Shown here piece after piece: positions 5,489 to 64,000 of a DNA stretch of 64,000 nt. Below the pieces are notes generated by a model. The model was given only the letters and a program-made list of their open reading frames with translations. It was not told where the DNA came from and searched no databases. This DNA comes from Rhynchopus sp. YZ270_cl-10 (lineage: Eukaryota). Where the stretch lies: assembly GCA_964035575.1 (NCBI GenBank), contig OZ037837.1:1426001-1490000 (forward strand), written 5' to 3'. Position numbers and translations under genes: made by a program. Positions within the stretch are counted from its first letter, which is position 1. Every line of letters starts with the position of its first letter.

Positions 5489-8055
5489 AAAAGGGAAATG
5501 GTGGAGCCCTTGGGGTTTCCAAGATTACATATTTTCCAAGAAAATAAAAATGTTAGAAGCAGTGCCAGGGTGGGGTTGTTTCTTTTTGCAAACCACAATG
5601 ATGATCCTTTGTGGAAATCAATTTTAACTGCCTCCCGTTTTTCCGTTTTTCCGTTTTGATTCATTTTACGACTCCCCAGCCATTTCCCCTTTCTTTTATT
5701 TTTAGAAATCAACAAAAAACAAATTATCTTACCCCTGCTTACCCTTGAATACTGTCTTGCTGCGTGCACACAACGTGGCAGATGTCAGGGTTATTGCAGG
5801 GAGGTGTCTTTTACTCTTCAGATGTGTATGCACAATGAGGCATATTTTGATCTCTCAAACTTTCTATTTTACCTTCTATTCAGTAGAATAGTTAGTATAT
5901 GAAACAAACTTTCTGTTTTGTTTTCCATCCTCTCTTCTCAGGTGACGAATCAACACTCATGATCGTTGGACATCTTTTAGCTAGGGTGGTCAAAGCACAA
6001 GAAGCGTACGTTTATTTGAACAAAAATCTCTCTTTTTTTCATTTCATTTTAGATTCCTATAGATGTGTGTGCACGACACATTTCATCTTGACCCCCTTTT
6101 TGGTTCTCACGCTATTCTTTTACCCCCTCCTCTCGACAAAAGGCAAAATGGTGTATTGACGTTGTGCTGTGAAAGCTGACATCATCTCCTCATGCCTTCT
6201 ACGGTAGCATAGTGTCTGTTGCGTCACTAAAGCACATTGAGGTTTTGGTGCAATGCGATAGAAAAGCTAATTTTTATCCAGACCAAAAAAACAGCACCAC
6301 ACAGCTGTATCCCCACACAGTGGACCAGCAGGAGAAACCACTAGTGGACCCGATAGGTGAAATGACGTCAGGTGGAACCCTGTCGACCCCCACCTGTCTT
6401 CGTACCTCCTGCTCCACTGTGCCATTACCTCTGTACACCGCACCCCCGTTTTTATCGTAAAATCTCAATCGCCCGCCACCTCGCCCCAAGAGTCTCACCA
6501 CGCAGTGCTGCCCTCTACCTGTGTCACCTCTCAGAGCTAAGCAAGAGGAGAGGTCAGCAGTGACCTGGATTTATGTGTTTTGTGTTGTGCGGTACCTTCG
6601 CGTGTATCACAAACCCACCTCCGCCCTCCCCCCCACTTTCGCGGGAAATGTTTGTTTGTTTTGCGGATTTTGTGTTTATTTATGTTTACAGTTGAACGTC
6701 CTTGTGCTTTCTCTTCTGATTTGGAAAGTGTATGAAATGAATTGTTGACAGAAAACACAACTACCCAAAGCAAAGGAACACCCACACCACTATCATAATC
6801 AGTAAAAAGGCAAAAAAAAAACGAAAAGGTCATTTTTGTTGGAATGTTTTTGGCACCACCCTGCAAAAAAGAAGTCACACCCAACCCCTTCCAGACACCC
6901 CTGCACCCTCCCACCTCTTCGAAACACACAACATACAACATGGTGTCTGACACGCAGCCCACCGCACCACAGATGCCGAGCTGTGAGAACTGTGGCGTGC
7001 CTGCACAACTGCAGTGCGGGATCTGCACGGAGATGTTCTTCTGCGACACACCTGCGTGCTATGACGCTTGCCATGCAAGGCCACGTGACCGTGAGGCACA
7101 TCGCGCTTCTGTGACTCCTTACGGGACGTCGTCGAAGTGTGCACAGCACCCAGGCCAAGAGCTGTGCGTCGTCTGTGAAGACCCTGCGTGTGGGGACGCG
7201 TTGATCTGCTTGCGTTGTGCGTTCGTCGGACATACGGGACACAAGACAGCTGACATCACGGACTACATGAAACGCCAGCGTGACACCCTCTGCTCACACG
7301 TGGCAGACCTGACAGCACAGCGGACTGCTGCAGAGGAGAAGTGCCGTGTGCTTGAAGCACTCCCACCCACGGAGGACAGGTACAAAGACCTTCTCCTGCA
7401 GACACACGTCGGGCACCTCGTGATGCGTGAGGATGTGTCGCGCAGCGAAGTCGTGTGTGAGGAGGAGGTGGCACGGAGCTTCCTCACACAGGCACTCAGT
7501 CGTGAAGGGGAGGTGTGTGCGTTGAAGACGTTTGTTGCGAAGGCAGGACACATGATTGCTGAGTGTGAGGCGGTGTGCCAGCTTGGGGACGACCAGGTGC
7601 TGCGTGCGGTCACAGAGTCGCAGGCCGTTGTGCGGAGCATCAACAGCATGGCAGCGAGTGGAGACCGCCACCGCCTTGTGGGTGCTGCACACCCACACAC
7701 AACGTTTTCCCTGAAGCTGCCTGTTTCGAACGTGCACGACGCCCTTGCCCAGATGTCTGCGATTTTTGTGCCTGTCCTTGTGCAGGGGTTGGATGGAGTG
7801 GAACACGAGATTGAGGTGAGTGTGGATGACACGGGCAGGGACTTGCTTCGGAAGGTGGCGTCTGCAGTGGGGTTGCCTGAAGGCTGCTTCGACATGACTT
7901 TCAGAGATGAAGTGATTGCAGAAGGAGAGGACGTGGTGCAGCTGAGGGGTCACAGGGTTGTTCTAACACTCAAGACAGAGAGGACGAAGCAGTATGCCAT
8001 TGCAGCACTTCGTGCGTTGGGTGAGACAACACTTACATCAGAAAGGTTGGAGCAG

Positions 8056-8146
8056 CCCGACGGCGGACCGCCCCCCATAGCACATTTTTGCGGTGCACGG
8101 GCGTACGGGATTAGTATCTTTTTTTCGAGAGAACCCAAGAGCGGCC
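8056..8146 (+). ncRNA. Putative HDV-like self-cleaving ribozyme at the retroposon 5' end
   Basis: Pairings in HDV order: P1 8056-8062/8102-8109, P2 8065-8071/8141-8146, P3 8072-8074/8099-8101, short P4 ~8117-8130, J4/2 GAACCCAAGA. Confidence 0.5.
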
Positions 8147-8660
8147 AGGTCCTGGACAAGTACGTTGTGCTTTTAGACCTACAAACTGTCTGGGGTGGTG
8201 GGACCTCGGGGCGAAGGGTGCTTCCCGGGACCCCAATATCCTACCACAAGGAGCTCGAGTCGTGCATGGAATGCAGGGTACTCTGAGCCGATTACTTCCA
8301 CAAAACTCCCAGATCCCAAGACCTCCACGGGGGGCAGGCCTCCACGGTAACCCGCGACCGCCGACACCTTAGCTCCGTACTGCCTCTGTCTGTAACCTGC
8401 CGGTCCCCCACCTACCTACGCTTTTTGTGGTGTCTTTTACGACGGTGGACCAAGGGGCTTTGCAGTGCAGTCAACGCCGACGGAGCGAGACTCGATTGTG
8501 ACCGGGTGAAAAGGGAACCTTAGCCAGCGCTAACCAGCGGCAGTTTTGACTCAGGGAGGAGTTTCTCACCGCAGACTGGCGACACACCCCCCACTTTTTC
8601 GGGGTGGCTGCATTCCTCTTCGGAACGGGGTGTTCCATCCTATTTTTAAAAACGTTTATT
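8056..8660 (+). mobile_element. 605-bp short non-LTR retroposon-like insertion with 19-bp TSD
   Basis: atcagaaaggttggagcag is duplicated at 8037-8055 and 8661-8679; paralogs have one copy of the equivalent site. AT-rich 3' end. 5' end resembles the Ingi/RIME/L1Tc signature. Confidence 0.85.
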
Positions 8661-11600
8661 ATCAGAAAGGTTGGAGCAGGTGCGTGATCCGAAGGTGGCT
8701 TGCTTGCTCCTGCAGGCACAAGTTGCGACTGCTATTCCAAACAACTTCTTCTCGAGAACTGCAGTGACGTGGATTGATCTCAGTCATGCGTCTGCTGTGA
8801 CTGTGATTGGGGACGGGTTTCTTTGTGACTGCACAGCTTTGACCAAAGTTGACCTTAGTGGTTTGCAAGCTGTCACCTCGATTGGGCACATGTTCCTCCG
8901 TGGGTGCACATCATTATTGACAGTTGATATGAGTGGATTACAAGCTGTCACCTCCATTGGAGCCTGCTTCCTCTACGAGTGCAAATCATTGTTGACAGTT
9001 GATCTGAGTGGATTTCAAACTTCAACCGCCATCGCGCTGCATTTCCTCAGCGGGTGCTCATCATTGAAGACCTTGCATGGAAAGGACAAGTACAGCAAAG
9101 TTGTACTCAAGAAGCTCCCACAACATCTACGGTAGTGTCATTCACACTCACCTCAATCTCGTGTTCCGCCCCATTCATATCTGCACAAGTACAGTTCACT
9201 TTGCAGCAGTTGTTGTTGTTGTGCATCTTCACCCCTTGCACTGTGTGGTCAGCTGCACGACGGCTGCTCTGCACTGTGCTGAGGTGTGCTTCTTTATTAT
9301 TTTTGGGAGGTGGTGACAGAGTGAGGTGGGGTTTGTTGGGATGAGTCATACGAAACAATTGGGAGGATTTGAGAGGGTTGGCTGGGTGTTGTGAACAACA
9401 GAGCATTTCTTTGGGTTTGGGTGAGGGACGTTGAGGGTGGGGTCCTTCTTAGGATCAGAAGTGTGTCCACTAAATTGGTTTTCATTTTTGAGTTTTGGAT
9501 GTTTGGAACACTGCTGTGGGTTTCAAGCAGGTGTTTTGTATCTCTACGGATTCGTGGAGAACTGACCCTCTTTTCGTTCCCGTCGTGTGATACTGAGTGG
9601 AGTTGAGACTTTGGCCCAGTCTGGTTTGCGCTTCACCCTAGCACAGACGCCTCTATGAGGCTAGGGCTTGGCATCAGTCTTTGTTTTGTTTATAAATGAG
9701 GGTGGCTACTAACGTTTCATTGGTGAGGGGTGCAGAGGGGAGGGTAGGGGAGGGGTGTTTGTGTACGTGTGTAGTACCGGGATTTACAAAGAAATGTGAG
9801 GACAGAGTCTTTCAGCAAAGAACCCACACCCTGGGGAACGTGTGCTGTCTTGGCTGTGCTTTAATGAAAAAGGTACGTGTGACTAAGCAGAGTAGGCTTA
9901 GTTTTGTCTTCTCGTTTTTTTGTATTTTTGTCGCTCTTTTTTTCACCCCATTTTCCGCGATGCGAACTTCGTTGGAGTGTGTCAATGAGCCTCATCGTTG
10001 GGTGCAATGACGCGTGTGTATGATCAATATGCACGCGTTTTCTCAGGTCCGACAAGACCAATATGTTAACTGTAAACAAAAAATGCTATTTTTCCAGGAA
10101 AACAAAAAGGGAGATCATCGTGTTTATGAGGAGTTACTTAATAGCGGTTGGTCAGTGGAGTTCATCCTCGGGTGTCTACACTAATACAACCAAGTTTTCA
10201 AAAAGCACAACACATAAAGCCAGAGCAAAACAAAGCAGAACCAACCAAATTTAATTTTTATCTCCAAAACCCTTCACGTCACCCATACCTGAACTATTTT
10301 CCTGCTTTACTTCTTGCCCCCCTTTGAGCACAGCGTCTATTGTGACTGTGCAGCAGTTGCTGTCTAAGCAATACTGTCGCTGTGTCGTGGCGCGACGATC
10401 AAAACACCTTGAGTGTTTTGGGATGAGGTCCTGGGTTGAGACTTTGCACGTTGGGATGGTATCGCTGATTATTTGGTTTTGGGTGTCGTCAAGCAGGGTA
10501 CGCATACGCATCCGTCAGTTGGGCAACCCTTCGATGCAGTGCAGCAATGATCCTCATCGTTGTTCGTGCAGGTCTGTAAATACGTAAAGGCAACAAGCAA
10601 GAGCGTGCGTTGTGTGGGTTGTGTGTCATTTGGACAACCCCTTCGATGCAGTGCTGTATGTTACTACACACACTAGCTAGGTAGGGGTGCCGCTAGAGTT
10701 GCCTGCATGCTGTACACAGGCTTTCTGCATGACCTTTGGGTTAACACAACTCAAACGGGAAGTAGGTTACGTAAGAGGGGGTGCATGGGCACAGAGGGGT
10801 CAATGGTGTTAAGGGAACGGAGGGGAATCACAGTTCTTAGTGGAGGGTCACTGGGTGCACAAATCCTTTGTTGACAGGTAGTGGGGGAGGGTTTGCGTCC
10901 TGTGTGGCAGAGTTGCGAACATACAAGAGGACAACTGTACCGGAACGCAAGGGAGACGACTGCTCTTCTGAACGAAGGTGTTCCTCAAGAAGACGCTAAC
11001 CTTTTCCCGTCCTCCTTATTGTGAGTCTTGCTCGAAATTGCCGAGACTCTCACTCTGGTGCCTCTGAGGGAGACCCCCTGGCCCTCGGGCTTTATTTGGC
11101 ACCAAAACCACCCTCGTGCCTCTGCCTCGTGGCACCGTACCCCTCCAGGCGTAAAGTGTTTATGAGTATCGGGAATACATAGCTATCCAAAGCACCCCTC
11201 CACAAGAACACAGGATACCTGACGGGAGGGGAGATGGGGATGCAGTGTCTCAATGAGGTGACCCACCTCTGTACGCCGCACCCCCGTTTTTATCGTAAAA
11301 TCTCAATCGCCCGCCACCTCGCCCCAAGAGTCTCACCACGCAGTGCTGCCCTCTACCTGTGTCACCTCTCAGAGCTAAGCAAGAGGAGAGGTCAGCAGTG
11401 ACCTGGATTTATGTGTTTTGTGTTGTGCGGTACCTTCGCGTGTATCACAAACCCACCTCCGCCCTCCCCCCACTTTAGCGGGAAATGTTTGTTTGTTTTG
11501 CGGATTTTGTGTTTATTGATGTTTACAGTTGAACGTCCTTGTGCTTTCTCTTCTGATTTGGAAAGTGTATGAAATGAATTGTTGACAGAAAACACAACTA

Positions 11601-11746: not shown

Positions 11747-13396
11747 ATGGTGTCTGACACGCAGCCCACCGCACCACAGATGCCGAGCTGTGAGAACTGT
11801 GGCGTGCCTGCACAGCTGCAGTGCGGGATCTGCAAGGAGCTGTTCTTCTGCGACACACCTGCGTGCTACGATGCTTGCCATCCAAGGAAAGGCGACCGTG
11901 AGGCACATCGCGCTTCTGTGACTGCGTACGGGACGTCGTCGAAGTGTGCACAGCACCCAGGACAAGAGCTGTCCCTCGTCTGTGAAGACCCTGCGTGTGG
12001 AGACGCGTTGATCTGCATACACTGTGCTTACTTCGGACACACGGGACACAAGACAGTTGACATCACGGACTACATGAAACGCCAGCGTGACACCCTCTGC
12101 TCACACGTGGCAGACCTGACAGCACAGCGGACTGCTGCAGAGGAGAAGTGCCGTGTGCTTGAGGCACTCCCACCTACGGAGGACAGGTACAAAGATCTTC
12201 TCCTGCAGACACACGTCGGGCACCTCGTGATGCGTGAGGATGTGTCGCGCAGCGAAGTCGTGTGTGAGGAGGAGGTGGCACGGAGCTTCCTCACACAGGC
12301 ACTCAGTCGTGAAGGGGAGGTGTGTGCGCTGAAGACGTTTGTTGCGAAGGCAGGACACATGATTGCTGAGTGCGAGGCGGTGTGCCAGCTTGGGGACGAC
12401 CAGGTGCTGCGTGCGGTCGCAGAGTCGCAGGCCGTTGTGCGGAGCATCAACAGCATGGCAGCGAGTGGAGACCGCCACCGCCTTGTGGGTGCTGCACACC
12501 CACACGCAACGTTTTCCCTGAAGCTGCCTGTTTCGAACGTGCACGATGCCCTTGCCCAGATGTCTGCGCTTGTTGTGCCTGTCCTTGTGCAGGGGTTGGA
12601 TGGAGTGGAACACGAGATTGAGGTGAGTGTGGATGACACGGGCAGGGACTTGCTTCGGAAGGTGGCGTCTGCAGTGGGGTTGCCTGAAGGCTGCTTCGAC
12701 ATGACTTTCAGAGATGAAGTGATTGCAGAAGGAGAGGACGTGGTGCAGCTGAGGGGTCACAGGATTGTTGTAACGCAGACCAGCACAGAGAGGAGGAAGC
12801 AGGATGCCATTGCAGCACTTCGTGCGTTGGGTGAGACAACACTTACATCACAAAGGTTGAAGCAGGTGGCTGATCCGAAGGTGGCTTGCTTGCTCCTGCA
12901 GGCACAAGTTGTGACTGCGATTCCAGACGACTTCTTCCAGAGAACTGCAGTGACGTGCATTGATCTCAGTCATGCGTCTGCTGTGACTGCGATTGGGCAC
13001 GGATTTCTTCGTAACTGCACAGCTTTGACCGACGTTGATCTGAGTGGATTGCAAGCTGTCACCTCGATTGGTCACACGTTCCTTTGCGGGTGCACATCGT
13101 TGTCGACAGTGGATATGAGTGGATTGCAAGCTGTCACCTCGATTGGGTACTCGTTCCTCGGCGGGTGCACATCATTATCGTCAGTTGATCTGAGTGGATT
13201 CAAAGCTGTCACCACGATTGAGTCCTGCTTCCTCTTCGGGTGTACATCATTGTCAACAGTGGATCTGAGTGCATTTCAAACTGTAACCGCCATCGCGCAG
13301 CATTTCCTCTGCGAGTGCACATCATTGAAGACCTTGCATGGAAAGGACAAATGCAACAATGCTGTACTCAACAATCTCCCACAACGTCTACGGTAG
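11747..13396 (+). CDS. Family A copy 2: RING-less TRIM-like protein (B-box1, B-box2, coiled coil) with UBL domain and BspA/TpLRR-type LRRs, 549 aa
   Basis: CENC..C..C..FC..C..H and CAQH..C..C..LIC..C..GH.GH zinc-ligand patterns; helical segment; VLVQGLDGVEHEIEVSVDDTGRDLLRKVASAVGL beta-grasp pattern; 25-aa repeats LxxVDLSGLQAVTSIGxxFLxxC. Confidence 0.85.
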   Translation: MVSDTQPTAPQMPSCENCGVPAQLQCGICKELFFCDTPACYDACHPRKGDREAHRASVTAYGTSSKCAQHPGQELSLVCEDPACGDALICIHCAYFGHTGHKTVDITDYMKRQRDTLCSHVADLTAQRTAAEEKCRVLEALPPTEDRYKDLLLQTHVGHLVMREDVSRSEVVCEEEVARSFLTQALSREGEVCALKTFVAKAGHMIAECEAVCQLGDDQVLRAVAESQAVVRSINSMAASGDRHRLVGAAHPHATFSLKLPVSNVHDALAQMSALVVPVLVQGLDGVEHEIEVSVDDTGRDLLRKVASAVGLPEGCFDMTFRDEVIAEGEDVVQLRGHRIVVTQTSTERRKQDAIAALRALGETTLTSQRLKQVADPKVACLLLQAQVVTAIPDDFFQRTAVTCIDLSHASAVTAIGHGFLRNCTALTDVDLSGLQAVTSIGHTFLCGCTSLSTVDMSGLQAVTSIGYSFLGGCTSLSSVDLSGFKAVTTIESCFLFGCTSLSTVDLSAFQTVTAIAQHFLCECTSLKTLHGKDKCNNAVLNNLPQRLR

Positions 13397-18116: not shown

Positions 18117-19769
18117 ATGGTGTCCGACACGCAGCCCACCGCACCACAGATGCCGAGCTGTGAGAACTGTGACGAGCCTGCACAACTGCAGTGCGGGAAC
18201 TGCACGGATCTGTTCTTCTGCGACACACCTGCGTGCTATGACGCTTGCCACCCAAGTCCACGTGACCGTGAGGCACATCGCGCTTCTGTGACTCCGTACG
18301 GGATGTCGTCGAAGTGTGCACAGCACCCAGGACAAGAGCTGTGCGTCGTCTGTGAAGACCCTGCGTGTGGAGACGCGTTGATCTGCTTGCGTTGTGCGTA
18401 CGTCGGACATACGGGACACAAGACAGTTGACATCACGGACTACATGAAACGCCAGCGTGACACCCTCTGCTCACACGTGGCAGACCTGACAACACAGCGG
18501 ACTGCTGCAGAGGAGAAGTGCCGTGTGCTTGAGGCACTCCCACCCACAGAGGACAGGTACAAAGACCTTCTCCTGCAGACACGCATCGGGCACCTCGTGA
18601 TGCGTGAGGATGTGTCACGCAGCGAAGTTGTGTGTGAGGAGGAGGTGGCACGGAGCTTCCTCACACAGGCACTCAGTCGTGAAGGGGAGGTGTGTGCGCT
18701 GAAGACGTTTGTTGCGAAGGCAGGACACATGATTGCTGAGTGCGAGGCGGTGTGCCAACTTGGGGACGACCAGGTGCTGCGTGCGGTCACAGAGTCGCAG
18801 GCCGTTGTGCGGAGCATCAACAGCATGGCAGCGAGTGGAGACCGCCACCGCCTTGTGGGTGCTGCAGACCCACACGCAAGGTTTTCCCTGAAGCTGCCTG
18901 TTTCGAACGTGCACGACGCCCTTGCCCAGATGTCTGCGCTTGTTGTGCCTGTCCTTGTGCAGGGGTTGGATGGAGTGGAACACGAGATTGAGGTGAGTGT
19001 GGATGACACGGGCAGGGACTTGCTTCGGAAGGTGGCGTCTGCAGTGGGGTTGCGTGAAGGCTGCTTCGACATGACTTTCAGAGATGAAGTGATTGCAGAA
19101 GGAGAGGACGTGGTGCAGCTGAGGGGTCACAGGGTTGTTGTAACGCTGACCAACACAGAGAGGAGGAAGCAGGATGCCATTGCAGCACTTCGTGCGTTGG
19201 GTGAGACAACACTTACAGAAGAAAGGTTGAAGCAGGTGACTGATCCGAAGGTGGCTTGCTTGCTCCTGCAGGCACAAGTTGTGACTGCGATTCCCGAAAA
19301 CTTCTTCATGAGTACTCGAGTGACGTGCATTGATCTCAGTCATGCGTCTGCTGTGACTGTGATTGGGCACGGATTTCTTCGTGACTGCACAGCTTTGACC
19401 AAAGTTGACCTTAGTGGGTTGCAAGCTGTCACCTCGATTGGGAGCTACTTTCTCTACGGGTGTACAGCGTTGCCGACAGTTGATTTGAGTGGATTGCGAC
19501 GTGTCACCTCGATTGGGAAATGGTTCCTCTCCGGGTGCACATCATTGTCGACAGTTGATCTAAGTGTATTCAACGGTGTAGCGGCGATTGGGGCCTGCTT
19601 CCTCTACGAGTGCACATCAATGTCAACAGTGGATCTGAGTGGATTGCAAACTGTCACTGCCATTGGGAACTACTTCTTCCACGGGTGCACGTCATTGAAG
19701 ACCTTGCATGGAAAGGACAAGTGCAGCACTCTTGTACGCAACAATCTCCCACAACTCTTACGCCGTTGA
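18117..19769 (+). CDS. Family A copy 3 (B-box/B-box/CC/UBL/LRR), 550 aa
   Basis: Intact ORF from the ATG at 18117, paralogous to 11747-13396. Confidence 0.85.
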   Translation: MVSDTQPTAPQMPSCENCDEPAQLQCGNCTDLFFCDTPACYDACHPSPRDREAHRASVTPYGMSSKCAQHPGQELCVVCEDPACGDALICLRCAYVGHTGHKTVDITDYMKRQRDTLCSHVADLTTQRTAAEEKCRVLEALPPTEDRYKDLLLQTRIGHLVMREDVSRSEVVCEEEVARSFLTQALSREGEVCALKTFVAKAGHMIAECEAVCQLGDDQVLRAVTESQAVVRSINSMAASGDRHRLVGAADPHARFSLKLPVSNVHDALAQMSALVVPVLVQGLDGVEHEIEVSVDDTGRDLLRKVASAVGLREGCFDMTFRDEVIAEGEDVVQLRGHRVVVTLTNTERRKQDAIAALRALGETTLTEERLKQVTDPKVACLLLQAQVVTAIPENFFMSTRVTCIDLSHASAVTVIGHGFLRDCTALTKVDLSGLQAVTSIGSYFLYGCTALPTVDLSGLRRVTSIGKWFLSGCTSLSTVDLSVFNGVAAIGACFLYECTSMSTVDLSGLQTVTAIGNYFFHGCTSLKTLHGKDKCSTLVRNNLPQLLRR

Positions 19770-20873: not shown

Positions 20874-21664
<791 letters not shown>

Positions 21665-21681
21665 CCTCCCACCTCTAAAAA

Positions 21682-23169
21682 ATGAAGCGTTCCTCCGTGA
21701 GTGAGTCCCCCACCACAAAGAAGGCCCGGGTGGACGGCCCTGCACCCTCCCACCTCCCCGAAACACACAACGTGGTGTCTGACACGCAGCCCACCGCACC
21801 ACAGATGCCGAGCTGTGAGAAGTGTGGCGTGCCTGCACAGCTGCAGTGCGGGATGTGCAAGGAGCTGTTCTTCTGCGACACACCTGCGTGCTACGATGCT
21901 TGCCACCCAAGGAAAGGCGACCGTGAGGCACATCGCGCTTCTGTGACTGCGTACGGGACGTCGTCGAAGTGTGTACAGCACCCAGGCCAAGAGCTGTCCC
22001 TCGTCTGTGAAGACCCTGCGTGTGGAGACGCGTTGATCTGCTTGCGTTGTGCGTACGTCGGACACACGGGACACAAGACAGTTGACATCACGGACTACAT
22101 GAAACGCCAGCGTGACACCTTCTGCTCACACGTGGCTGACCTGACAACACAGCGGACTGCTGCAGAGGAGAAGTGCCGTGTGCTTGAGGCACTCCCACCC
22201 ACAGAGGACAGGTACAAAGACCTTCTCCTGCAGACACACGTCGGGCACCTCGTGATGCGTGAGGATGTGTCGCGCAGCGAAGTCGTGTGTGAGGAGGAGG
22301 TGGCACGGAGCTTCCTCACACAGGCACTCAGTCGTGAAGGGGACGTGTGCGCGCTGAAGATGTTTGTTGCGAAGGCAGGACACATGATTGCTGAGTGTGA
22401 GGCGGTGTGCCAGCTTGGGGACGACCAGGTGCTGCGTGCGGTCACAGAGTCGCAGGCCGTTGTGCGGAGCATCAACAGCATGGCAGCGAGTGGAGACCGC
22501 CACCGCCTTGTGGGTGCTGCAGACCCACACACAACGTTTTCCCTGAAGCTGCCTGTTTCGAACGTGCACGACGCCCTTGCCCAGATGTCTGCGATTTTTG
22601 TGCCTGTCCTTGTGCAGGGGTTGGATGGAGTGGAACACGAGATTGAGGTGAGTGTGGATGACACGGGCAGGGACTTGCTTCGGAAGGTGGCGTCTGCAGT
22701 GGGGTTGCGTGAAGGCTGCTTCGACATGACTTTCAGAGATGAAGTGATTGCAGAAGGAGAGGACGTGGTGCAGCTGAGGGGTCACAGGGTTGTTGTAACG
22801 CAGACCAGCACAGAGAGGAGGAAGCAGGATGCCATTGCAGCACTTCATGCGTTGGGTGAGACAACACTTACATCACAAAGGTTGGAGCAGGTGACTGATC
22901 CGAAGGTGGCTTGCTTGCTCCTGCAGGCACAAGTTGTGACTGCGATTCCAAACAATTTCTTCTCGAGTACTGAAGTGATGTGCATTGATCTCAGTCATGC
23001 GTCTGCTGTGACTGCGATTGGGAACGAATTTCTTCGTGACTGCACATCTTTGACCAACGTTGACCTTAGTGGACTGCAAGCTGTCACCTCGATTGGGTAC
23101 TCGTTCCTCCGTGGGTGCAGATCATTGTTGACACTTGATTTGAGTGGATTGCAATCCGTCACCGTGTGA
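21682..23169 (+). CDS. Family A copy 4, with altered N-terminus and C-terminally truncated LRR (possibly a pseudogene)
   Basis: The paralog ATG reads GTG here; an upstream ATG adds MKRSSVSESPTTKKARVDG. The LRR region ends at repeat module B (23164), which supplies the stop. Confidence 0.7.
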   Translation: MKRSSVSESPTTKKARVDGPAPSHLPETHNVVSDTQPTAPQMPSCEKCGVPAQLQCGMCKELFFCDTPACYDACHPRKGDREAHRASVTAYGTSSKCVQHPGQELSLVCEDPACGDALICLRCAYVGHTGHKTVDITDYMKRQRDTFCSHVADLTTQRTAAEEKCRVLEALPPTEDRYKDLLLQTHVGHLVMREDVSRSEVVCEEEVARSFLTQALSREGDVCALKMFVAKAGHMIAECEAVCQLGDDQVLRAVTESQAVVRSINSMAASGDRHRLVGAADPHTTFSLKLPVSNVHDALAQMSAIFVPVLVQGLDGVEHEIEVSVDDTGRDLLRKVASAVGLREGCFDMTFRDEVIAEGEDVVQLRGHRVVVTQTSTERRKQDAIAALHALGETTLTSQRLEQVTDPKVACLLLQAQVVTAIPNNFFSSTEVMCIDLSHASAVTAIGNEFLRDCTSLTNVDLSGLQAVTSIGYSFLRGCRSLLTLDLSGLQSVTV

Positions 23170-23288
23170 TCTGGGGTGAGGAAGCGTTCCAACTTTTCAA
23201 CCTCTTCCCCAATTTACCTTTCACGCCTTTTTTACCCTCCCCCGTTTTAGAATCAACAGAGAGTGTACGTTAAGATTTATTGCATCAA

Positions 23289-28658: not shown

Positions 28659-29534
28659 ATGGAACTGACGGTTCGTACCTTTGGCAAGAGGCAGTATGCG
28701 ATTGAGGTGGGTGAGGATGACACAACGGAGAAGTTGCGGGAGAAGGTGGCGTCTGCAACGGGGTTGTGCGGAGACGACTTTCATATGATGTTTGGAGGGG
28801 AGGACGTGGAGGACATCACGCAGCTGAGTGCTGGAGACACAGTTGTGCTGACGGAGGCGAAGGCGAAGAAGTACGAAGCCATTGCAGCACTTCACGCATT
28901 GGGTGAGAGAGACATCACAGCACGGAGGTTGCAGGTGGTGACGGATGCGGAGGTGGCCACCTTGCTGCTGCAGGCAGAAGTTACGACTGTGATTCCAGGC
29001 TACTTCTTCGCAAACAGCTCAGTCACGTCCATTGATTTCAGCAACGTATCTGTTGTGGATGCGATTCGTAACAGATTCCTCTGTCACTGCACTTCTTTGA
29101 CCGCAGTTAACCTGAGTGGCTTGTCTGCACTCACCAGAATTGAGGATTATTTCCTAACTTCGTGTCCAACTTTGACGACAGTGAATCTCACTGGCTTGCG
29201 TGCAGTCACGTCAATTGGTGAACGTTTTATGTATGACTGCCCAGCTTTGACAACAGTGGACCTCAGCAGCTTACGGTCAGTCACCACTATTGGGCAGTGG
29301 TGTCTAGCTTACTGCACAGCACTCACGGCAGTTGACCTGAGCGGTTTATCTGCACTCACTAGGATTGAGGATGAATTCCTATCTTGGTGTTCAGATTTGA
29401 CTACAGTGAATCTCACTGGCTTGCCTGCAGTCACCACAATTGGTGCAGGTTTTCTGTATGAGTCGTCCCTGCCTACTGTAGTTCAAAGGCTTCTGCCTTC
29501 ATTGAGTACAGACCTGAACCCTCCCACCTGTTGA
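28659..29534 (+). CDS. UBL plus BspA-type LRR protein (family A relative lacking B-boxes)
   Basis: MELTVRTFGKRQYAIEVGEDDTTEKLREKVA UBL; same AIAALxALGE linker as family A; LxxVNLSGLxAxTxIxxxFLxxC repeats. Confidence 0.85.
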   Translation: MELTVRTFGKRQYAIEVGEDDTTEKLREKVASATGLCGDDFHMMFGGEDVEDITQLSAGDTVVLTEAKAKKYEAIAALHALGERDITARRLQVVTDAEVATLLLQAEVTTVIPGYFFANSSVTSIDFSNVSVVDAIRNRFLCHCTSLTAVNLSGLSALTRIEDYFLTSCPTLTTVNLTGLRAVTSIGERFMYDCPALTTVDLSSLRSVTTIGQWCLAYCTALTAVDLSGLSALTRIEDEFLSWCSDLTTVNLTGLPAVTTIGAGFLYESSLPTVVQRLLPSLSTDLNPPTC

Positions 29535-44732: not shown

Positions 44733-45917
44733 ATGGAGATATGGTTTGAATGCACAACATCTGGACAACGCTGTGCTGCAGAGGTGGGGGAGGGTTGCAG
44801 TGCTGCAGATCTGCAGGAGCGTGCTGTTGCGGTGTTGTACCCACAGAGCGTGGTGTCGGCCGAGGCAGTGGGGCTGTGTGTGGATGGTGCTGATGGTGAG
44901 GTGCTGGCACCGGAGGTTCTGATTGCCCACACCGCACTGTGTGCAGGCGGGACTGTCTATGTGAGCAGACGCAAGCAGGACAGCAGTGGTGTGTGGGTGC
45001 CGCGGCGCTATCCTCTGAGTGAAGCCATCGGAGACGTATGCGAGGACACACTCGTAGTGGCTGGCGAATGCGCCATCAACCTCGTCACCACCAAGGTCAC
45101 ACCTCTCCCTCCTGTAGGCGGAATTGTGTGCGAAATAGTTCTCCTGCCACACCACATCGTCTACTGTAGTTCACAGAGCAGCGATGCTGTGTACTTTAGA
45201 CTGCGGGACAGCGGTGCAGAGGTTGTGGTACGTATGGCATGCAGGGTTGAGAGGCTTGTGGCCATGCGGGTCACCGAGACGGTGCTGATTGGGACGAATG
45301 AGCACATCGTACAGTACTCCTGCGAGGGGGTGAAGATGCGTACCATTGATCACTCTGAGTATTCCTTGGGGTACCCCTTTGCAGTGTCACCCTGCGAGAC
45401 CCTGTTGTTGAGCAACGGATACCCGACCGTTTTGGTGTACCGTCTGGACACCCCTGAGCTGAGTGTGGTGCACCGTGTGAACACAGGGATGCGTGTGTCG
45501 TTCTATTTGCGGCCGTCGTTTTCGCCCGACGCAAGCCTCGCAGTGTTGAGCTGTGGCGACAACCACACCGTGCGCACCATTGACATCGTCTCCGGGCAGG
45601 CCCTCTGCACACTTCCCGATGCAGCATACCCTTTTAATAGTGCTTGTTTCAGTGCGTGCTCGCGATACCTCTTCACGTTGTTTGGCGAGAGTGTGCAGCA
45701 GTGGGACGCACGCAGTGGAGCATACATGGGACGCATCGACGCCCACCACGCGCGGTCTGTGCATGCCTCGACAGACGGGAGCAGGCTGGTCCTAGTCGGA
45801 AGCGCAATCTCGGTGCTCGACATTGCTGCCTTCAACATGCGGGTGTCAGAGGAGGACGCCTTGCAACATGGTCCCCCAGCCGAGGAGTCACGTCGCAGTA
45901 GGTGTGTGTGTTCGTGA
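44733..45917 (+). CDS. Family B copy 6
   Basis: Paralog; ends RRSRCVCS. Confidence 0.8.
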   Translation: MEIWFECTTSGQRCAAEVGEGCSAADLQERAVAVLYPQSVVSAEAVGLCVDGADGEVLAPEVLIAHTALCAGGTVYVSRRKQDSSGVWVPRRYPLSEAIGDVCEDTLVVAGECAINLVTTKVTPLPPVGGIVCEIVLLPHHIVYCSSQSSDAVYFRLRDSGAEVVVRMACRVERLVAMRVTETVLIGTNEHIVQYSCEGVKMRTIDHSEYSLGYPFAVSPCETLLLSNGYPTVLVYRLDTPELSVVHRVNTGMRVSFYLRPSFSPDASLAVLSCGDNHTVRTIDIVSGQALCTLPDAAYPFNSACFSACSRYLFTLFGESVQQWDARSGAYMGRIDAHHARSVHASTDGSRLVLVGSAISVLDIAAFNMRVSEEDALQHGPPAEESRRSRCVCS

Positions 45918-47460: not shown

Positions 47461-48669
47461 ATGGAGATATGGTTTGAATGCACAACATCTGGACAACGCT
47501 GTGCTGCAGAGGTGGGGGAGGGTTGCAGTGCTGCAGATCTGCAGGAGCGTGCTGTTGCGGTGTTGTACCCACAGAGCGTGGTGTCGGCCGAGGCAGTGGG
47601 GCTGTGTGTGGATGGTGCTGATGGTGAGGTGCTGGCACCGGAGGTTCTGATTGCCCACACCGCACTGTGTGCAGGCGGGACTGTCTATGTGAGCAGAAGG
47701 AAGCAGGACAGCAGTGGTGTGTGGGTGCCGCAGCGCTACACTGTGCGATCCAGATCCAGATTCGCAGACATATGTGAGGGCACACTCGTGTTGGGTGGCC
47801 TGGACGCCGTCAGCATCAACCTCGTCACCACCAAGGTCACACCTCTCCCTCACATAGTAGCTCTTGTACATGAATATTTGGGCGAGGTGGTCAAGGTGGT
47901 TCTCATGCCACACCACATGGTATACTGCAGTTTACAGAGCAATGCTGTGTACTTTAGACTGCGGGACAGCGGTGCAGAGGTTATGGTACGTATGGCATGC
48001 AGGGTTGAGAGGCTTGTGGCCATGCGGGTCACCGAGACGGTGCTGATTGGGACGAATGGGCACATCGTACAGTACTCCTGTGAGGGGGTGAAGATGCGTA
48101 CCATTGATCACTCTGAGTATTCCTTGGGGTACCCCTTTGCAGTGTCACCCTGCGAGACCCTGTTGTTGAGCAACGGATACCCGACCGTTATGGTGTTCCG
48201 TCTGGACACCCCTGAGCTGAGTGTGGTGCACCGTGTGGACACAGGACTCTCTCAGTCGCTCTGTTTGCGTCCGTTGTTTTCGCCCGACGCAAGCCTCGCA
48301 GTGTTGAGCTGTGGCAACAACCACACCGTGCGCACCATTGACATCGTCTCCGGGCAGGCCCTCTGCACACTTCCCAGTGAAGACCTTATATGTGGTGCCT
48401 GTTTCAGTGCATGCTCGCGATACCTCTTCACGGCCTCTACCAGGAGTGTGCAGCAGTGGGACGCACGCAGTGGAGCTCCCATGGGACGCATCGACGCTGA
48501 CCACGCGCGGTATGTGTATGCTTCGACAGACGGGAGCAGGCTGGTTGTTGTTGGAAGCGTCATCTCGGTGCTCGACATTGCTGCCTTCAACATGCAGGTG
48601 TCAGAGCAGGACGCCTTGCAACATGGTCCCCCAGCCGAGGAGTCACGCTGCAGGTGTGTGTGTTCGTGA
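47461..48669 (+). CDS. Family B copy 7
   Basis: ATG at 47461 by homology; ends RCRCVCS. Confidence 0.8.
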   Translation: MEIWFECTTSGQRCAAEVGEGCSAADLQERAVAVLYPQSVVSAEAVGLCVDGADGEVLAPEVLIAHTALCAGGTVYVSRRKQDSSGVWVPQRYTVRSRSRFADICEGTLVLGGLDAVSINLVTTKVTPLPHIVALVHEYLGEVVKVVLMPHHMVYCSLQSNAVYFRLRDSGAEVMVRMACRVERLVAMRVTETVLIGTNGHIVQYSCEGVKMRTIDHSEYSLGYPFAVSPCETLLLSNGYPTVMVFRLDTPELSVVHRVDTGLSQSLCLRPLFSPDASLAVLSCGNNHTVRTIDIVSGQALCTLPSEDLICGACFSACSRYLFTASTRSVQQWDARSGAPMGRIDADHARYVYASTDGSRLVVVGSVISVLDIAAFNMQVSEQDALQHGPPAEESRCRCVCS

Positions 48670-49695: not shown

Positions 49696-50916
49696 ATGGA
49701 GATATGGTTTGAATGCACAACATCTGGACAACGCTGTGCTGCAGAGGTGGGGGAGGGTTGCAGTGCTGCAGATCTGCAGGAGCGTGCTGTTGCGGTGTTG
49801 TACCCACAGAGCGTGGTGTCGGCCGAGGCAGTGGGGCTGTGTGTGGATGGTGCTGATGGTGAGGTGCTGGCACCGGAGGTTCTGATTGCCCACACCGCAC
49901 TGTGTGCAGGTGGGACTGTCTATGTGAGCAGACGCAAGCAGGACAGCAGTGGTGTGTGGGTGCCGCAGCGCTACACTGTGCGATCCAGATCCAGATTCGC
50001 AGAAGTATGCGAGGGCACACTCGTGTTGGGTGGCCTAGACGCCGTCAGCATCAACCTCGTCACCACCAAGGTCACACCTCTGCTTCATATAGAAGCTCTT
50101 GCACATGATTATTTGGGCAAGGTGCTCAAGGTGGTTCTCATGCCACACCACATGGTATACTGCAGTTTACAGAGCAATGCTGTGTACTTTAGACTGCGGG
50201 ACAGCGGTGCAGAGGTTGTGGTACGTATGGCATGCAGGGTTGTGAGGCTTGTGGCCATGCGGGTCACCGAGACGGTGCTGATTGGGACGAATGGGCACAT
50301 CGTACAGTACTCCTGCGAGGGGGTGAAGATGCGTACCATTGATCACTCTGAGTATTCCTTGGGGTACCCCTTTGCAGTGTCACCCTGCGAGACCCTGTTG
50401 TTGAGCAACGGATACCCGACCGTTGGGGTGTACCGTCTGGACACCCCTGAGCTGAGTGTGGTGCACCGTGTGGACACAGGACAGTGCCACTCGTCCTATT
50501 TGCGGCCGTTGTTTTCGCCCGACTCAAGCCTCGTAGTGTTGAGATGTGGGAGCAACAAACGCACCGTCCGTACCTTTGACATCGTCTCCGGGCAGGCCCT
50601 CTGCACACTTCCCGATGCGGCAAACCCTTTTCATGCTGCCTGTTTCAGTGCGTGCTCGCGATACCTCTTCACGGCCACTACGTGGAGTGTGTGGCAGTGG
50701 GACGCACGCAGTGGAGCTCCCATGGGACGCATCGACGCTGACAACCCGCGGTCTGTGCATGCCTCGACAGACGGGAGCAGGCTGGTCGTTCTAGAAGAAG
50801 GCGCCATCTCGGTGCTCGACATTGCTGCCTTCAACATGCAGGTGTCAGAGGAGGACGCCTTGCAACATGGTCCCCCAGCCGAGGAGTCACGCTGCAGTAG
50901 GTGTGTGTGTTCGTGA
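49696..50916 (+). CDS. Family B copy 8
   Basis: Paralog; ends CSRCVCS. Confidence 0.8.
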   Translation: MEIWFECTTSGQRCAAEVGEGCSAADLQERAVAVLYPQSVVSAEAVGLCVDGADGEVLAPEVLIAHTALCAGGTVYVSRRKQDSSGVWVPQRYTVRSRSRFAEVCEGTLVLGGLDAVSINLVTTKVTPLLHIEALAHDYLGKVLKVVLMPHHMVYCSLQSNAVYFRLRDSGAEVVVRMACRVVRLVAMRVTETVLIGTNGHIVQYSCEGVKMRTIDHSEYSLGYPFAVSPCETLLLSNGYPTVGVYRLDTPELSVVHRVDTGQCHSSYLRPLFSPDSSLVVLRCGSNKRTVRTFDIVSGQALCTLPDAANPFHAACFSACSRYLFTATTWSVWQWDARSGAPMGRIDADNPRSVHASTDGSRLVVLEEGAISVLDIAAFNMQVSEEDALQHGPPAEESRCSRCVCS

Positions 50917-56250: not shown

Positions 56251-57915
56251 ATGGTGTCTGACACGCAGCCCACCGCACCACAGATGCCGAGCTGTGAGAA
56301 CTGTGGCGTGCCTGCACAGCTCCAGTGCGGGATCTGCACGGAGATGTTCTTCTGCGACACACCTGCATGCTTCGAAGTGTTCCACTCATCCTTGAGGCCA
56401 CGTGACCGTGAGGCACATCGCGCTTCTGTGACTCCGTACGGGACGTCGTCGAAGTGTGCACAGCACCCAGGCCAAGAGCTGTCCCTCGTCTGTGAAGACC
56501 CTGCGTGTGGAGACGCGTTGATCTGCATACACTGTGCTTACTTCAGACACACGGGACACAAGACAGTTGACATCACGGACTAGACAGACCTGACAGCACA
56601 ACGGACTGCTGCAGAGGAGAAGTGCCGTGTGCTTGAGGCACTCCCACTCACGGAGGACAGGTACAAAGACCTTCTCCTGTAGACACACGTCGGGCACCTC
56701 GTGATGCGTGAGGATGTGTCGCGCAGCGAAGTCGTGTGTGAGGAGGAGGTGGCACGGAGCTTCCTCACACAGGCACTCAGTCGTGAAGGGGAGGTGTGTG
56801 CGCTGAAGACGTTTGTTGCGAAGGCAGGACACATGATTGCTGAGTGCGAGGCGGTGTGCCAGCTTGGGGACGACCAGGTGCTGCGTGCGGTCGCAGAGTC
56901 GCAGGCCGTTGTGCGGAGCATCAACAGCATGGCAGCGAGTGGAGACCGCCACCGCCTTGTGGGTGCTGCAGACCCACACACAACGTTTTCCCTGAAGCTG
57001 CCTGTTTCGAACGTGCACGACGCCCTTGCCCAGATGTCTGCGCTTGTTGTGCCTGTCCTTGTGCAGGGGTTGGATGGAGTGGAACACGAGATTGAGGTGG
57101 GTGTGTTTGACACGGGCAGGGACTTGCTTCGGAAGGTGGCGTCTGCAGTGGGGTTGCGTGAAGGCTGCTTCCACCTGAGTTTCGGAGATGAAGTGATTGC
57201 AGAAGGAGAGGACGTGGTGCAGCTGAGGGGTCACAGGGTTGTTGTAACGCATTCCAATACAGAGAAGAGGAAGCAGGATGCCATTGCAGCACTTCGTGCG
57301 TTGGGTGAGACAACACTTACATCACAAAGGTTGAAGCCTAAAATGAAGCAGGTAACCAATCTGGGCACTTTACGGGATATTATGTGGACACTTGATTGGT
57401 CTCGGTGTGGCTTCAGCGACGAAGAGGGCTGCCGAATGCTTGACAAGGTTGCAAAAGAAAGGCCACAGACCATAGCATACCACACTGCATGGACGCTCAA
57501 GTTCGGTGACAACAGGTTCGGGGTGTCCTTTGTGAGGCACCTCATTGAGCACATCCTGTCTGCACAGCCCCGTCTGGTCAAAGTTCTAGAACTGCCCGGG
57601 TGTGACCTAACAGATGACTGCTTGCGCCACATCACGCATTGGTTGAACTCATCCGCTAAAATACCTCTTCATAAACTTATCATTCACCGTAATCGCGCCC
57701 TTACCCGTGAAACTGTAATCAAGTTTGTTCAGTTTGCGGACCAACGTTACAGGGAATGGTGGCCTGCGTTCTGGCTTGACGTGCACACATCACTTTTCAG
57801 GCAACTGCTCCAACCAGGGTCGAGAGAGTACCCCAATCAGATGAGAGGTCTGGACAGTGACACTGACTCAAGGCACGTTGCAGTAGGTTGGTGGCAGAAC
57901 CTCAGGTACAGGTGA
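56251..57915 (+). pseudogene. Family A copy 5: internal stops and a deletion; BspA LRR replaced by an unrelated LRR-like C-terminus
   Basis: TAG at 56581 after a deletion and a second TAG near 56679; homology ends at QRLK (~57336), then an in-frame novel sequence follows. Confidence 0.8.
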
Positions 57916-62215: not shown

Positions 62216-63301
62216 ATGATGGATGTGACCTTTGTGCTGGAAGAGTCAGGCGTGACTGCGACAGTGGAGGTGCCGTGCGAAGCGGACGCTGCAGCGGCAA
62301 AGGAGGTTGCGTGCACGGCGCTTGCTGTCTCGCCTGCGTCTGTCGAGATGCGCATCGGCACGCAGGTGGTGGAGGGGACGTGCCGTCTGCGGGACACTGC
62401 ATTTGATGCAGGGGTGCAGGTTGTGCTTGCTCGCCCTCGCTTGGCCGACATCAAGTGTCCTGCTGAACACGTTTTAGAGGGGTGCGCGACGTCGTTGACG
62501 CTGTCGCGTTGTGGAACGCTCTGCATCTATAGTCATGGGAGAGGGCATGTTGGCGGCTTCGACACAGAAACCTTCGAAACTTCCTTCGAATTCACAATTG
62601 GTCGTTCTGTGTTCGGTGCGCCTGCCATCTCGCAGTGCAAGACACGCTGTTACCTGCCATGTAGGAACTGCCTTCTCGAGCTTGCACTTCCGGGAGGGGA
62701 GGTGGTCCGCAAAGTCGACGGCTACTCCAAATCTATGCTCGCGTGTGGCGGTGTTGTTGTCTCGAAGGGCAATGACAGCGTCTCTGTGTACGACGAAGAC
62801 CTGACGTTGCTCCGCTCTCTCTCGCGCGAGGGGTGTTGGGACGTGGCAGTGTCGGACTGTGGTGGGTGGGTGATCACCTCCTCCCACCTTCAGAAGAAGG
62901 CGCGTCTGTGGGATGTGAACACAGGTGTTGCTGTGGCATGTGTGCCTGTGGACGGGTGGTATGTGGCGCTTTCACGATCTGCCTCTGTCTTTGCTGTGGG
63001 ACAGAGAAACAGCGCTCACCTCTATGATTGGAGTGGTGCGGCACTTCGCAGTGTTGATGTGGATGGGTTTGTCGGGCGCATGCAGTTCACCCCGTGTGGG
63101 AAGTACCTTGTGGTGAAGGTAGATGATGCGGAATCTCGTGATACCCACCTGCGGCAGTATGATGTGGCGACCATGTCCTGTGTGCGTGTGATACCGCAGT
63201 GCGGTGCATTTGCGATATCGCCGTGTTCACGTGTCGTTGTGGCATTGGAAGAAAGTACCAACATTGTGACAAGACATCTGTACCCACACAACAATGAGTG
63301 A
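62216..63301 (+). CDS. Family D copy 1: UBL plus WD40-like propeller
   Basis: MMDVTFVLEESGVTATVEV...LRDTAFDAGVQVVL UBL-like; ARLWDV, AHLYDW and FTPCG blades. Confidence 0.8.
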   Translation: MMDVTFVLEESGVTATVEVPCEADAAAAKEVACTALAVSPASVEMRIGTQVVEGTCRLRDTAFDAGVQVVLARPRLADIKCPAEHVLEGCATSLTLSRCGTLCIYSHGRGHVGGFDTETFETSFEFTIGRSVFGAPAISQCKTRCYLPCRNCLLELALPGGEVVRKVDGYSKSMLACGGVVVSKGNDSVSVYDEDLTLLRSLSREGCWDVAVSDCGGWVITSSHLQKKARLWDVNTGVAVACVPVDGWYVALSRSASVFAVGQRNSAHLYDWSGAALRSVDVDGFVGRMQFTPCGKYLVVKVDDAESRDTHLRQYDVATMSCVRVIPQCGAFAISPCSRVVVALEESTNIVTRHLYPHNNE

Positions 63302-63482
63302 TGTGTGAAGGGGAGGGGAGGGAGAGGAGTGATCAATCTAACCCAGGGTACCAGCAAAAAAAAACCCAACACCCCCAAGAAACCCCTTTTGGCCTGTTGC
63401 AGGAACATATGCTCATCCTCCTTATTAGTCGTTGCGAAGTGACACCACCATCCACATCAAACACAACAGACCCCTTAACAAT

Positions 63483-64000
63483 ATGATGGATGTGACCTTT
63501 GTGCTGGAAGAGTCAGGCTTGACTGCGACAGTGGAGGTGCCGTGCGAGGCGAACGTTGCAGCGGCAAAGGAGGTTGCGTGCACGGCGCTTGCTGTCTCGC
63601 CTGCGTCTGTCGAGATGCGCATCGGCACGCAGGTGCTGGAGGGGACGTGCCGTTTGCAGGACACTGCGTTTGATGCAGGGGTGCAGGTTGTGCTTGCCCG
63701 CTGCTTTGCCGACATCAAGTGTCCTGCTGAGTGCAGTCTAGAGGCGCGACCAAGAACGCAGAAGAGAGAACGGGGGCACGTATCGCTGTCGCCTTGTGGA
63801 GCACTCTGCCTCTTTACACACGAGGATGGCTATGTCACCGGCCTCGATACAGAAACCTTCAACACTGCTTTCAAGTTCAAACTAGATATTAATGTGTTAA
63901 GTGCGCCTGCCATCACACGATGCAAGACACGCTGCTACGTGGCGTGTCTGGAAGAAGGTCTGCACAAGATTGCGCTTCCGGGAGGGGAGGTGCTCCGCAA
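63483..64000 (+). CDS. Family D copy 2 (runs off the window end)
   Basis: Open frame from the ATG at 63483; UBL nearly identical to copy 1, propeller diverged. Confidence 0.8.
   Translation, partial: MMDVTFVLEESGLTATVEVPCEANVAAAKEVACTALAVSPASVEMRIGTQVLEGTCRLQDTAFDAGVQVVLARCFADIKCPAECSLEARPRTQKRERGHVSLSPCGALCLFTHEDGYVTGLDTETFNTAFKFKLDINVLSAPAITRCKTRCYVACLEEGLHKIALPGGEVLR

Follow-up and report, generated by a model that had tools for sequence, protein, structure and literature searches.

A 64,000-nucleotide stretch of the diplonemid Rhynchopus sp. YZ270_cl-10 (contig OZ037837.1, positions 1,426,001 to 1,490,000 of the forward strand; hereafter the window) carries an array of 18 genes built on a ubiquitin-like (UBL) domain, mostly followed by leucine-rich repeats (LRRs) or a beta-propeller. 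We give an about even chance to the explanation that these genes are part of a large diplonemid family acting as intracellular receptors, in which the UBL passes the bound protein on to a host partner common to them all, probably one in the ubiquitin-proteasome system. The two halves of that proposal differ in standing: there is more support for recognition than for degradation.

An earlier reading of this DNA, referred to here as the original prediction, had described some 18 co-oriented UBL-plus-repeat genes in five architectures, and a six-frame search with four family UBL profiles recovers exactly 18 UBL domains, all on the + strand and spanning 7771-63701 (one extra borderline match on the minus strand, with an expectation value (E) of 0.001, was set aside from the count). 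In order, the genes are A1, A2, A3, A4, C1, B1, U1, B2, B3, C2, B4, B5, B6, B7, B8, A5, D1 and D2, with an ankyrin-repeat gene that has no UBL lying between B8 and A5. The five A genes run from B-box1 and B-box2 through a helical region, the UBL and a helical cap to a BspA-type LRR; the single U gene has the UBL, cap and LRR; and 12 genes (eight B, two C and two D) join the UBL to a propeller. BspA-type LRRs (Pfam LRR_5) were matched in A2, A3, A4 and U1, and WD40 or propeller families in every B, C and D copy. As also anticipated, several copies are disrupted—13 frames are apparently intact (U1 is perhaps shortened), A1, A4, A5 and B3 are broken, and D2 is cut by the window edge—and Gly-Gly is found at the end of 0 of the 18 UBLs, on which ground a conjugatable ubiquitin-like modifier was rejected. 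The 2-nt loss that breaks B3 could be an assembly slip instead of a true break. Pfam gave no match in the 18 genes to an F-box, BTB, SOCS-box, RING, UBA (at E 0.1), NACHT/NB-ARC, Crinkler or enzymatic toxin domain. Nor was a secretion or membrane-spanning signal seen by crude hydropathy analysis, in which no 19-residue window of the array proteins exceeds 1.9, a crude sign against a membrane span.

The case for recognition is built on where the sequence varies. Mean amino acid identity is higher in the UBL than in the repeat domain in every family: 0.98 against 0.79 in B (eight window copies), 0.96 against 0.75 in A (three copies), 0.88 against 0.54 in C (six proteins) and 0.87 against 0.53 in D (11 proteins). 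The near-invariant UBL beside a divergent repeat domain, as first described, holds to that extent, but in A the whole B-box/helical/UBL part is near-constant; among 35 A-type proteins, entropy is 1.07 bits in the UBL, 0.65 in the helical region and 1.42 in the LRRs. For the B propeller, entropy was computed from 42 of 58 B proteins, with strands taken from a structural model and assigned A-D in order. It is 0.09 bits in the UBL, 1.68 and 1.79 bits in the top loops D-A and B-C, and 0.25 and 0.24 bits in the bottom loops A-B and C-D, and each of the 14 top loops is more variable than each of the 13 bottom loops (p 6e-6). WD40 proteins usually bind through the top face. Variation is thus not uniform across domains, in keeping with the original prediction, and in B is confined to the predicted ligand-binding top face. 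The selected sites of the fungal non-self WD40 receptors HET-D and HET-E fall in the same d-a and b-c loops (PMC1805685). Among 238 LRR repeats from 90 proteins, variability peaks at positions 14, 17, 18, 21 and 22 (2.9-3.8 bits), and 18% of residues at positions 17, 18, 21 and 22 are aromatic, against 2-3% at other exposed positions.

How the copies evolve appears to involve both exchange and selection. Beginning about 30 bases before the start and continuing to codon 70, the eight window B genes have almost identical DNA. Among these copies, the UBL, the propeller framework and the top face show synonymous divergence (dS) of 0.027, 0.088 and 0.253 and nonsynonymous divergence (dN) of 0.009, 0.043 and 0.244, respectively; the drop of dS in the UBL is also seen in A, C and D. 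The nearest neighbor of a B copy shifts from blade to blade, and unusually long identical runs occur in 11 of 28 pairs. Because silent sites in the UBL are nearly invariant too, the constancy of this domain cannot be attributed to protein-level constraint alone, as had been assumed; together with the shared runs, it points to gene conversion or unequal exchange that homogenizes the UBL handle and the scaffold. Birth-and-death evolution, also proposed at the outset, is borne out by the many paralogs. The B framework is under purifying selection (dN/dS, or omega, 0.47, p 0.0009), and comparison of site models M2a and M1a gives a likelihood-ratio statistic of 75.9, with 18% of sites at omega 4.7. 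Of the 22 flagged sites, 20 lie on the top face, against an expected 45%; the signal persists within the top-face partition alone; and neutral simulations of blade-level mosaicism reached a maximum statistic of 14.8 in 41 runs. Silent diversity falls with distance from hypervariable codons across the whole gene (rho -0.30, p 3e-4), but the trend is not significant in the propeller alone (p 0.08). Top face and framework show no clear difference in GC content (p 0.08), and this comparison yielded no mutational signature. Diversifying selection, which would shield the loops from conversion, is likely.

The ends of the proteins offer a second line of evidence, missed by the original prediction. 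A CaaX end is present in 55 of 58 B proteins, including seven of the eight window copies, behind a tail of 25 to 68 residues, and another Cys stands just upstream in 51; the N-terminal motif and the CaaX end are both kept in 53. CaaX is a cytosolic modification signal, and from this motif class B proteins are predicted to be prenylated and anchored to membranes. Among 120 A and U proteins, an N-terminal basic motif occurs in 12, a C-terminal basic motif in 22 and a CaaX-like end in five; the basic motifs may be nuclear signals, a reading that depends on the gene calls. At the front of the A proteins, the B-boxes match Pfam zf-B_box (E 6e-5 to 0.07) and an ANCHR-like B-box just below the cut-offs, the Cys/His ligands of the second B-box are invariant in 35 A proteins, and the best PDB sequence match, to the B-box2-coiled coil of TRIM5/CypA, is not significant (E 0.11). 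Heads are also swapped, in that A5 and the relatives P0129 and P0126 carry tails other than the BspA LRR. In P0129 and P0126 the B-box/helical/UBL front is joined to a small unclassified beta-rich domain in place of LRRs, and in P0128 an A front end is joined to a whole D gene, which may be a read-through gene call. The A5 tail (57352-57915, 187 residues) has no Pfam or NCBIfam match and by eye is an LRR of a different class. P0088, an A-type relative, has two family UBLs flanking a ubiquitin unit that is closer to the canonical form and terminates in Gly-Gly.

That the N-terminal domains adopt a beta-grasp fold, as claimed, is supported to differing degrees across the classes. U1 matches Pfam ubiquitin at E 6.5e-6, above the cut-off, as well as solved ubiquitin structures in the PDB, and the UBL of A belongs to the same family. 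In profile comparisons with 501 ubiquitin-family domains, for which column-shuffled B, C and D profiles served as controls, A/U scored 97% and C 94% while shuffled controls reached at most 3.7%; B (4.5%) and D (2.5%) were both near the controls. Iterating the A/U profile failed to bring in B, C or D (best E 0.33). The D profile matches that of C at 58% (E 1e-4), and certain invariant columns are common to D, B and C. A model of the B UBL, based on an alignment of B, C and D rows only, shows the beta-grasp order strand-strand-helix-strand-helix-strand at a predicted local distance difference test score (pLDDT) of 57, and the top Foldseek rows are all ubiquitin-family proteins (ubiquitin, ISG15, NEDD8 and BAG6; template modeling score about 0.7, probability 1.0, best E 1.5e-3). 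The full-length B model leaves the UBL unfolded (pLDDT <50 for residues 1-97); in the repeat region it gives a seven-blade propeller whose nearest match is G-beta. Look-alike searches of the Atlas gave leads all below 0.9; for the B UBL, beta-grasp families account for two of five rows. The ubiquitin fold is therefore supported by sequence for A/U and C, held with modest confidence from the model for B, and reached only indirectly for D, via its likeness to C and the shared invariant columns.

All four UBL classes are acidic, with net charges of -6.5 to -7.3 where ubiquitin has 0, and their surfaces depart from that of ubiquitin. The Ile44 equivalent is Ser, Gly, Thr or Cys in most of 75 A/U domains (Ile in 4%), Cys in B, Arg in D, and Val or Arg in C, where the register is uncertain; the Val70 equivalent is Thr, Ser, Tyr or Ala, such that the Leu8-Ile44-Val70 hydrophobic patch is not kept. 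The Glu64 equivalent is Gly in the representative of each class, and the B UBL has a short insertion after its main helix. Shuttle-type docking on proteasome receptors uses the Ile44 patch, and the original prediction that these UBLs dock there as shuttle factors do is consequently not supported. Direct proteasome shuttles—in which the UBL would bind Rpn1, Rpn10 or Rpn13 via the hydrophobic patch and deliver a target without ubiquitination—would account for an integral ubiquitin-family fold without di-Gly, and the B/C/D profile weakly matches the parkin and SHARPIN UBLs in the PDB (E 0.18-0.9, not significant). Given the replaced patch residues in A/U, B, C and D and the lack of a UBA match, we rejected a canonical shuttle factor and think the broader shuttle explanation improbable. 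The surface of the yeast Ddi1 UBL is called positive in PMC4962041, reportedly the opposite of the original work, and nothing is drawn from charge here. Atypical UBLs can nonetheless act in the ubiquitin system, and by analogy those of the array may do so as well. For example, the atypical UBL of yeast Ddi1 is able to bind ubiquitin itself (Kd 45 uM; PMC4962041), and at the plasma membrane the prenylated MUBs bind E2 enzymes and control their activity (PMC4996978).

A non-degradative handle is another prospect, one that we regard as unlikely but deserving of attention. Here the genes would still encode variable receptors, for prey, symbiont or self cues, while the UBL docks on a small GTPase, a kinase or other UBLs in the manner of PB1 or DIX domains. 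The A-type UBLs weakly match the FERM N-terminal beta-grasp (E about 1e-4, at or below the cut-off), many beta-grasp domains have no link to degradation, and both the missing Ile44 patch and CaaX membrane anchoring would fit signaling. Yet the closest sequence and structure matches are to ubiquitin, ISG15, NEDD8 and the BAG6 UBL rather than to RA, PB1 or FERM domains, and GTPase-binding UBLs are usually basic where those of the array are acidic.

Several results weigh against the receptor explanation. Divergence at four-fold degenerate sites is itself higher in the top face (0.162) than in the framework (0.069) or UBL (0.020), and the codon models are a hand-written implementation applied to only the eight window B copies. 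Omega over the whole top face is 1.16, not different from 1, and M2a is outperformed by a null that allows faster rates for whole codons; when omega is freed in addition to this null, the estimate is 1.54 (p 0.07). Relaxed constraint or local hypermutation at exposed loops would give the same picture. A dN/dS above 1 in the B top face is not secure. The variable stripe of the LRRs lies off the canonical concave face, two positions of which are invariant, and the hypervariable residues of B are not clearly enriched in aromatics (13%). Finally, with the Ile44 and Val70 equivalents not conserved and no F-box, BTB, RING or UBA domain in the array, it is the fold by itself that provides the step to the ubiquitin system.

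The same silent-site data bear on a mostly neutral expansion, by duplication and conversion in a repeat-rich region, in which exposed loops drift and no recognition role exists. Four broken copies among 18, the interleaved mobile elements, the homogenized silent sites of the UBL and a top-face omega near 1 are all consistent with such a history. It does less well with bottom-face loops that are equally exposed yet invariant, with purifying selection on the B framework, with the joint retention of N-terminal motif and CaaX end in B, and with C and D paralogs that retain full frames at about 53% propeller identity; on balance we give it little credence.

The array is one part of a wider family. 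A search with the B protein returned 58 family clusters from 59 matches on 15 contigs, and a search with the A protein returned 132 A/U matches; the 120 listed among these are spread over 35 contigs, six of them shared with B (each search scored about 8000 candidates); the B-box pattern is present in 65 of the 120 listed A/U proteins and absent in 55. Further C and D members are among the best 150 of 1250 matches of a broad UBL profile search, which was dominated by polyubiquitin and multi-UBL proteins, and related families in other diplonemids are possible. The A, U and B matches outside the window, all ENA records, likely come from one assembly. Among diplonemid transcriptome proteins none matched A or B (about 8000 candidates scored), though some matched the transporter gene that precedes the array, which suggests that these families are confined to a lineage or diverge fast. 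An integrated giant-virus region, rich in ankyrin, LRR and WD40 genes, would be one way to arrive at a block of intronless repeat-protein genes with an ankyrin gene among them, and such genes are common in giant viruses. The viral contig collection, however, held no relative of B or A and metagenome contigs none of A, no viral core gene was found among the window proteins scanned, and copies lie on dozens of long contigs; a viral origin is largely refuted by these results and retains only the slightest probability.

No published description of a UBL-repeat expansion in diplonemids or other protists was found, with supplements and subscription papers outside the scope of the search. Ubiquitin, leucine-rich and WD40 have no occurrence in the main text of the Diplonema papillatum genome paper (PMC10161547) or in the accessible text of a 2026 diplonemid preprint (10.64898/2026.01.29.702485).

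Known systems share parts of the design. The nematode and plant F-box and MATH-BTB expansions, for which Thomas 2006 is reportedly the original study, likewise combine a constant adaptor with a variable substrate-binding domain in clustered families under birth and death. Their variants map to the substrate-recognition domains (PMC8120010); in the array the constant module is instead a UBL, F-box, BTB and SOCS-box matches are lacking, and dN/dS above 1 is less than secure. The fungal NWD/HNWD proteins, which include HET-D and HET-E, also have hypervariable d-a and b-c loops on the propeller top and exchange between family members (PMC1805685). The array differs in having no NACHT or other nucleoside triphosphatase (NTPase) domain and no cell-death domain, and in that the blades within a gene are not near-identical repeats, exchange taking place between equivalent positions of paralogs.

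Ytm1/WDR12 and Rsa4/NLE1, which act in ribosome assembly, pair an N-terminal UBL with a WD40 propeller, and an NLE-WD40 cluster is among the sub-threshold Atlas look-alikes of D1 (score 0.84). Ytm1 and Rsa4 contact the metal ion-dependent adhesion site (MIDAS) domain of Rea1 through a Glu at the ubiquitin Glu64 position. Membership of this group was rejected: the array has no Pfam NLE (PF08154) match, Gly replaces the MIDAS-binding Glu in all four representatives, and its genes are multi-copy and hypervariable where Ytm1 and NLE1 are single-copy and conserved. The A proteins resemble TRIM/RBCC proteins in that a variable C-terminal binder follows B-box1, B-box2 and a long helical region, but they have no RING, and their UBL sits between the helical region and the BspA-type LRR. 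MUB/UBL3 proteins share a non-conjugated UBL and a prenylation end with B; in B, a whole variable propeller separates UBL from CaaX (about 300 residues apart), and there are dozens of copies. Rad23, Dsk2 and Ddi1 have an integral UBL without di-Gly, unlike them the array has no UBA or protease domain and no Ile44 patch, and its families are large and diversified.

Crinkler/CR proteins, with a constant N-terminal Ubl header, variable C-termini and large families (PMC5289972), raise the idea of outward-acting effectors, delivered into prey or host cells where the repeat would bind a target. Some diplonemids are predatory or parasitic (10.64898/2026.01.29.702485), which would suit such a role. 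Against it, the C-termini in the array are binding repeats rather than enzymes, and neither a Crinkler profile nor an enzymatic toxin domain was matched. The UBL is internal in A, and the CaaX end of B is a signal for modification in the cytosol, all of which makes secreted effectors a distinctly remote prospect. The BspA-like families of Trichomonas and Entamoeba share the LRR class and its expansion (911 in T. vaginalis), and some Entamoeba members end in CAAX (PMC2843621). In the array, by contrast, the LRR is joined to a UBL and B-boxes, and it is the propeller family that carries the dominant CaaX; ubiquitin has 0 occurrences in that paper. The constant-adaptor logic is therefore familiar from F-box/BTB, fungal NWD and Crinkler proteins, while a UBL plus binding-repeat repertoire with end tags belongs to none of them.

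In mechanistic terms, the preferred receptor explanation would run as follows. The variable face would bind changing ligands, for instance viral proteins or the effectors of bacteria living in the cytoplasm. Such bacteria, equipped with many secretion systems and effectors, occur in diplonemids (10.1101/719211), and by analogy these are a plausible ligand source for the array receptors. The UBL would serve as a non-conjugated acidic docking handle, using a surface other than the Ile44 patch, and would present the bound ligand to a host factor shared by the receptors, with the ubiquitin-proteasome system as the most probable setting. End tags would set the compartment: prenylation and the nearby Cys would direct B to membranes, basic tails resembling nuclear localization signals (NLS-like) would act in some A/U proteins, and C and D have no tag. 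A would dimerize through its B-box/helical part, as TRIM proteins do, and gene conversion would keep handle and scaffold uniform while the variable loops escape. Of the original prediction, an intracellular surveillance system with the UBL as adaptor, the beta-grasp fold, the non-uniform variation and the birth-and-death history are retained, while shuttle docking and pure constraint on the UBL are not.

The features of the array are collected in Table 1.

Table 1. Genes and gene fragments of the UBL-repeat array (window positions)
Feature	Position	Strand	Description
A1	6940..9135	+	B-box1, B-box2, helical, UBL 7771-7977; 605-bp insertion 8056-8660; LRRs 8680-9135; broken
A2	11747..13396	+	Intact B-box/B-box/helical/UBL (12578-12787)/BspA-type LRR, 549 aa
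LRR-only fragment of an A gene	about 16843-17040	+	Frameshifted, no UBL
A3	18117..19769	+	Intact A gene, 550 aa, UBL 18948-19157
A4	21682..23169	+	N-terminal basic NLS-like extension; UBL 22603-22812; truncated within LRRs
C1	24767..25864	+	UBL + WD40 propeller, 365 aa
B1	26774..27970	+	UBL + 7-blade propeller + terminal CaaX (CVCS), 398 aa
U1	28659..29534	+	N-terminal UBL + helical cap + BspA-type LRR, 291 aa; C-terminus may be shortened
B2	30600..31847	+	UBL-propeller-CaaX, 415 aa
B3	33135..34592	+	UBL-propeller; 2-nt loss near 34345, CaaX end gone, frame longer
C2	35590..36681	+	UBL + WD40 propeller, 363 aa
B4	37033..38253	+	UBL-propeller-CaaX, 406 aa
B5	39906..41123	+	UBL-propeller-CaaX, 405 aa
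B6	44733..45917	+	UBL aa 1-80, propeller aa 93-363, helix + tail, CaaX; 394 aa; reference copy for models
B7	47461..48669	+	UBL-propeller-CaaX, 402 aa
B8	49696..50916	+	UBL-propeller-CaaX, 406 aa
A5	56251..57915	+	Broken A gene (deletion, two stops); UBL 57052-57261; BspA LRRs replaced by unrelated tail
D1	62216..63301	+	UBL + propeller, 361 aa
D2	63483..64000	+	UBL + propeller start, cut by window edge

Ahead of the array, at 2798-5488, lies a TauE-family transporter gene with internal SAM domains and, as read from the sequence, one 198-nt GT-AG intron (4280-4477). Its nearest named relatives are from Rhynchopus (62-67% identity) and from Diplonema and Lacrimia (50-52%), with paralogs on other long ENA contigs; the intron and these relatives mark the window as eukaryotic and its host as a diplonemid. 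The ankyrin-repeat gene inside the array (52470-53636) is intronless and lacks a UBL; it has about nine repeats, a 300-bp internal period and a short helical tail at the C-terminus. Neither a tRNA nor an Rfam family was matched, and NCBIfam profiles contributed nothing useful.

Mobile and repeated sequences are interleaved with the genes. The 605-bp insertion in A1 is retroposon-like and bounded by a 19-bp target-site duplication (8037-8055 and 8661-8679); because the duplication contains AG-GT, precise removal of the insertion by splicing is conceivable. The read-through tail of this insertion recurs in P0104 and P0107, which indicates that the interrupted gene was itself duplicated. Noncoding elements with long terminal inverted repeats, resembling miniature inverted-repeat transposable elements or foldback elements, lie at 1208-2274, 23286-24691 and 41432-44204, the latter two with a common internal 660-bp segment. 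A reverse-transcriptase fragment at 20064-20375 (Pfam RVT_1, E 4e-8) is a degraded relic, similar to a long interspersed nuclear element, between A3 and A4. Tandem repeats comprise about 96 units of a 6-7 bp G-rich repeat (21047-21648), 95 perfect copies of a 7-mer (41607-42270) and, between A5 and D1, complex repeats with periods of about 93, 380 and 540 bp and strong T and G skew (58957-60796). A short dispersed repeat (455-540, 23165-23280 and 29565-29670) starts exactly at the A4 truncation and just after the U1 stop, which suggests truncation caused by insertion.

Taken to its full extent, the receptor explanation would describe an immune repertoire of hundreds of receptors free of ligase and NTPase domains, with an acidic UBL replacing the F-box or BTB adaptor, swappable heads and end tags, policing bacteria and viruses while conversion fixes the handle; we offer this fuller version tentatively, as a possibility that is more doubtful than not. 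The cytoplasmic defense of free-living protists is poorly known, and diplonemids are abundant plankton. The array provides a candidate repertoire, and its four divergent, equally acidic UBLs should share a partner. Identification of that partner would show either a new route to the ubiquitin-proteasome system without the Ile44 patch or a new receptor-adaptor use of the ubiquitin fold. The top-face propeller diversification of fungal non-self receptors recurs here in a distant lineage.

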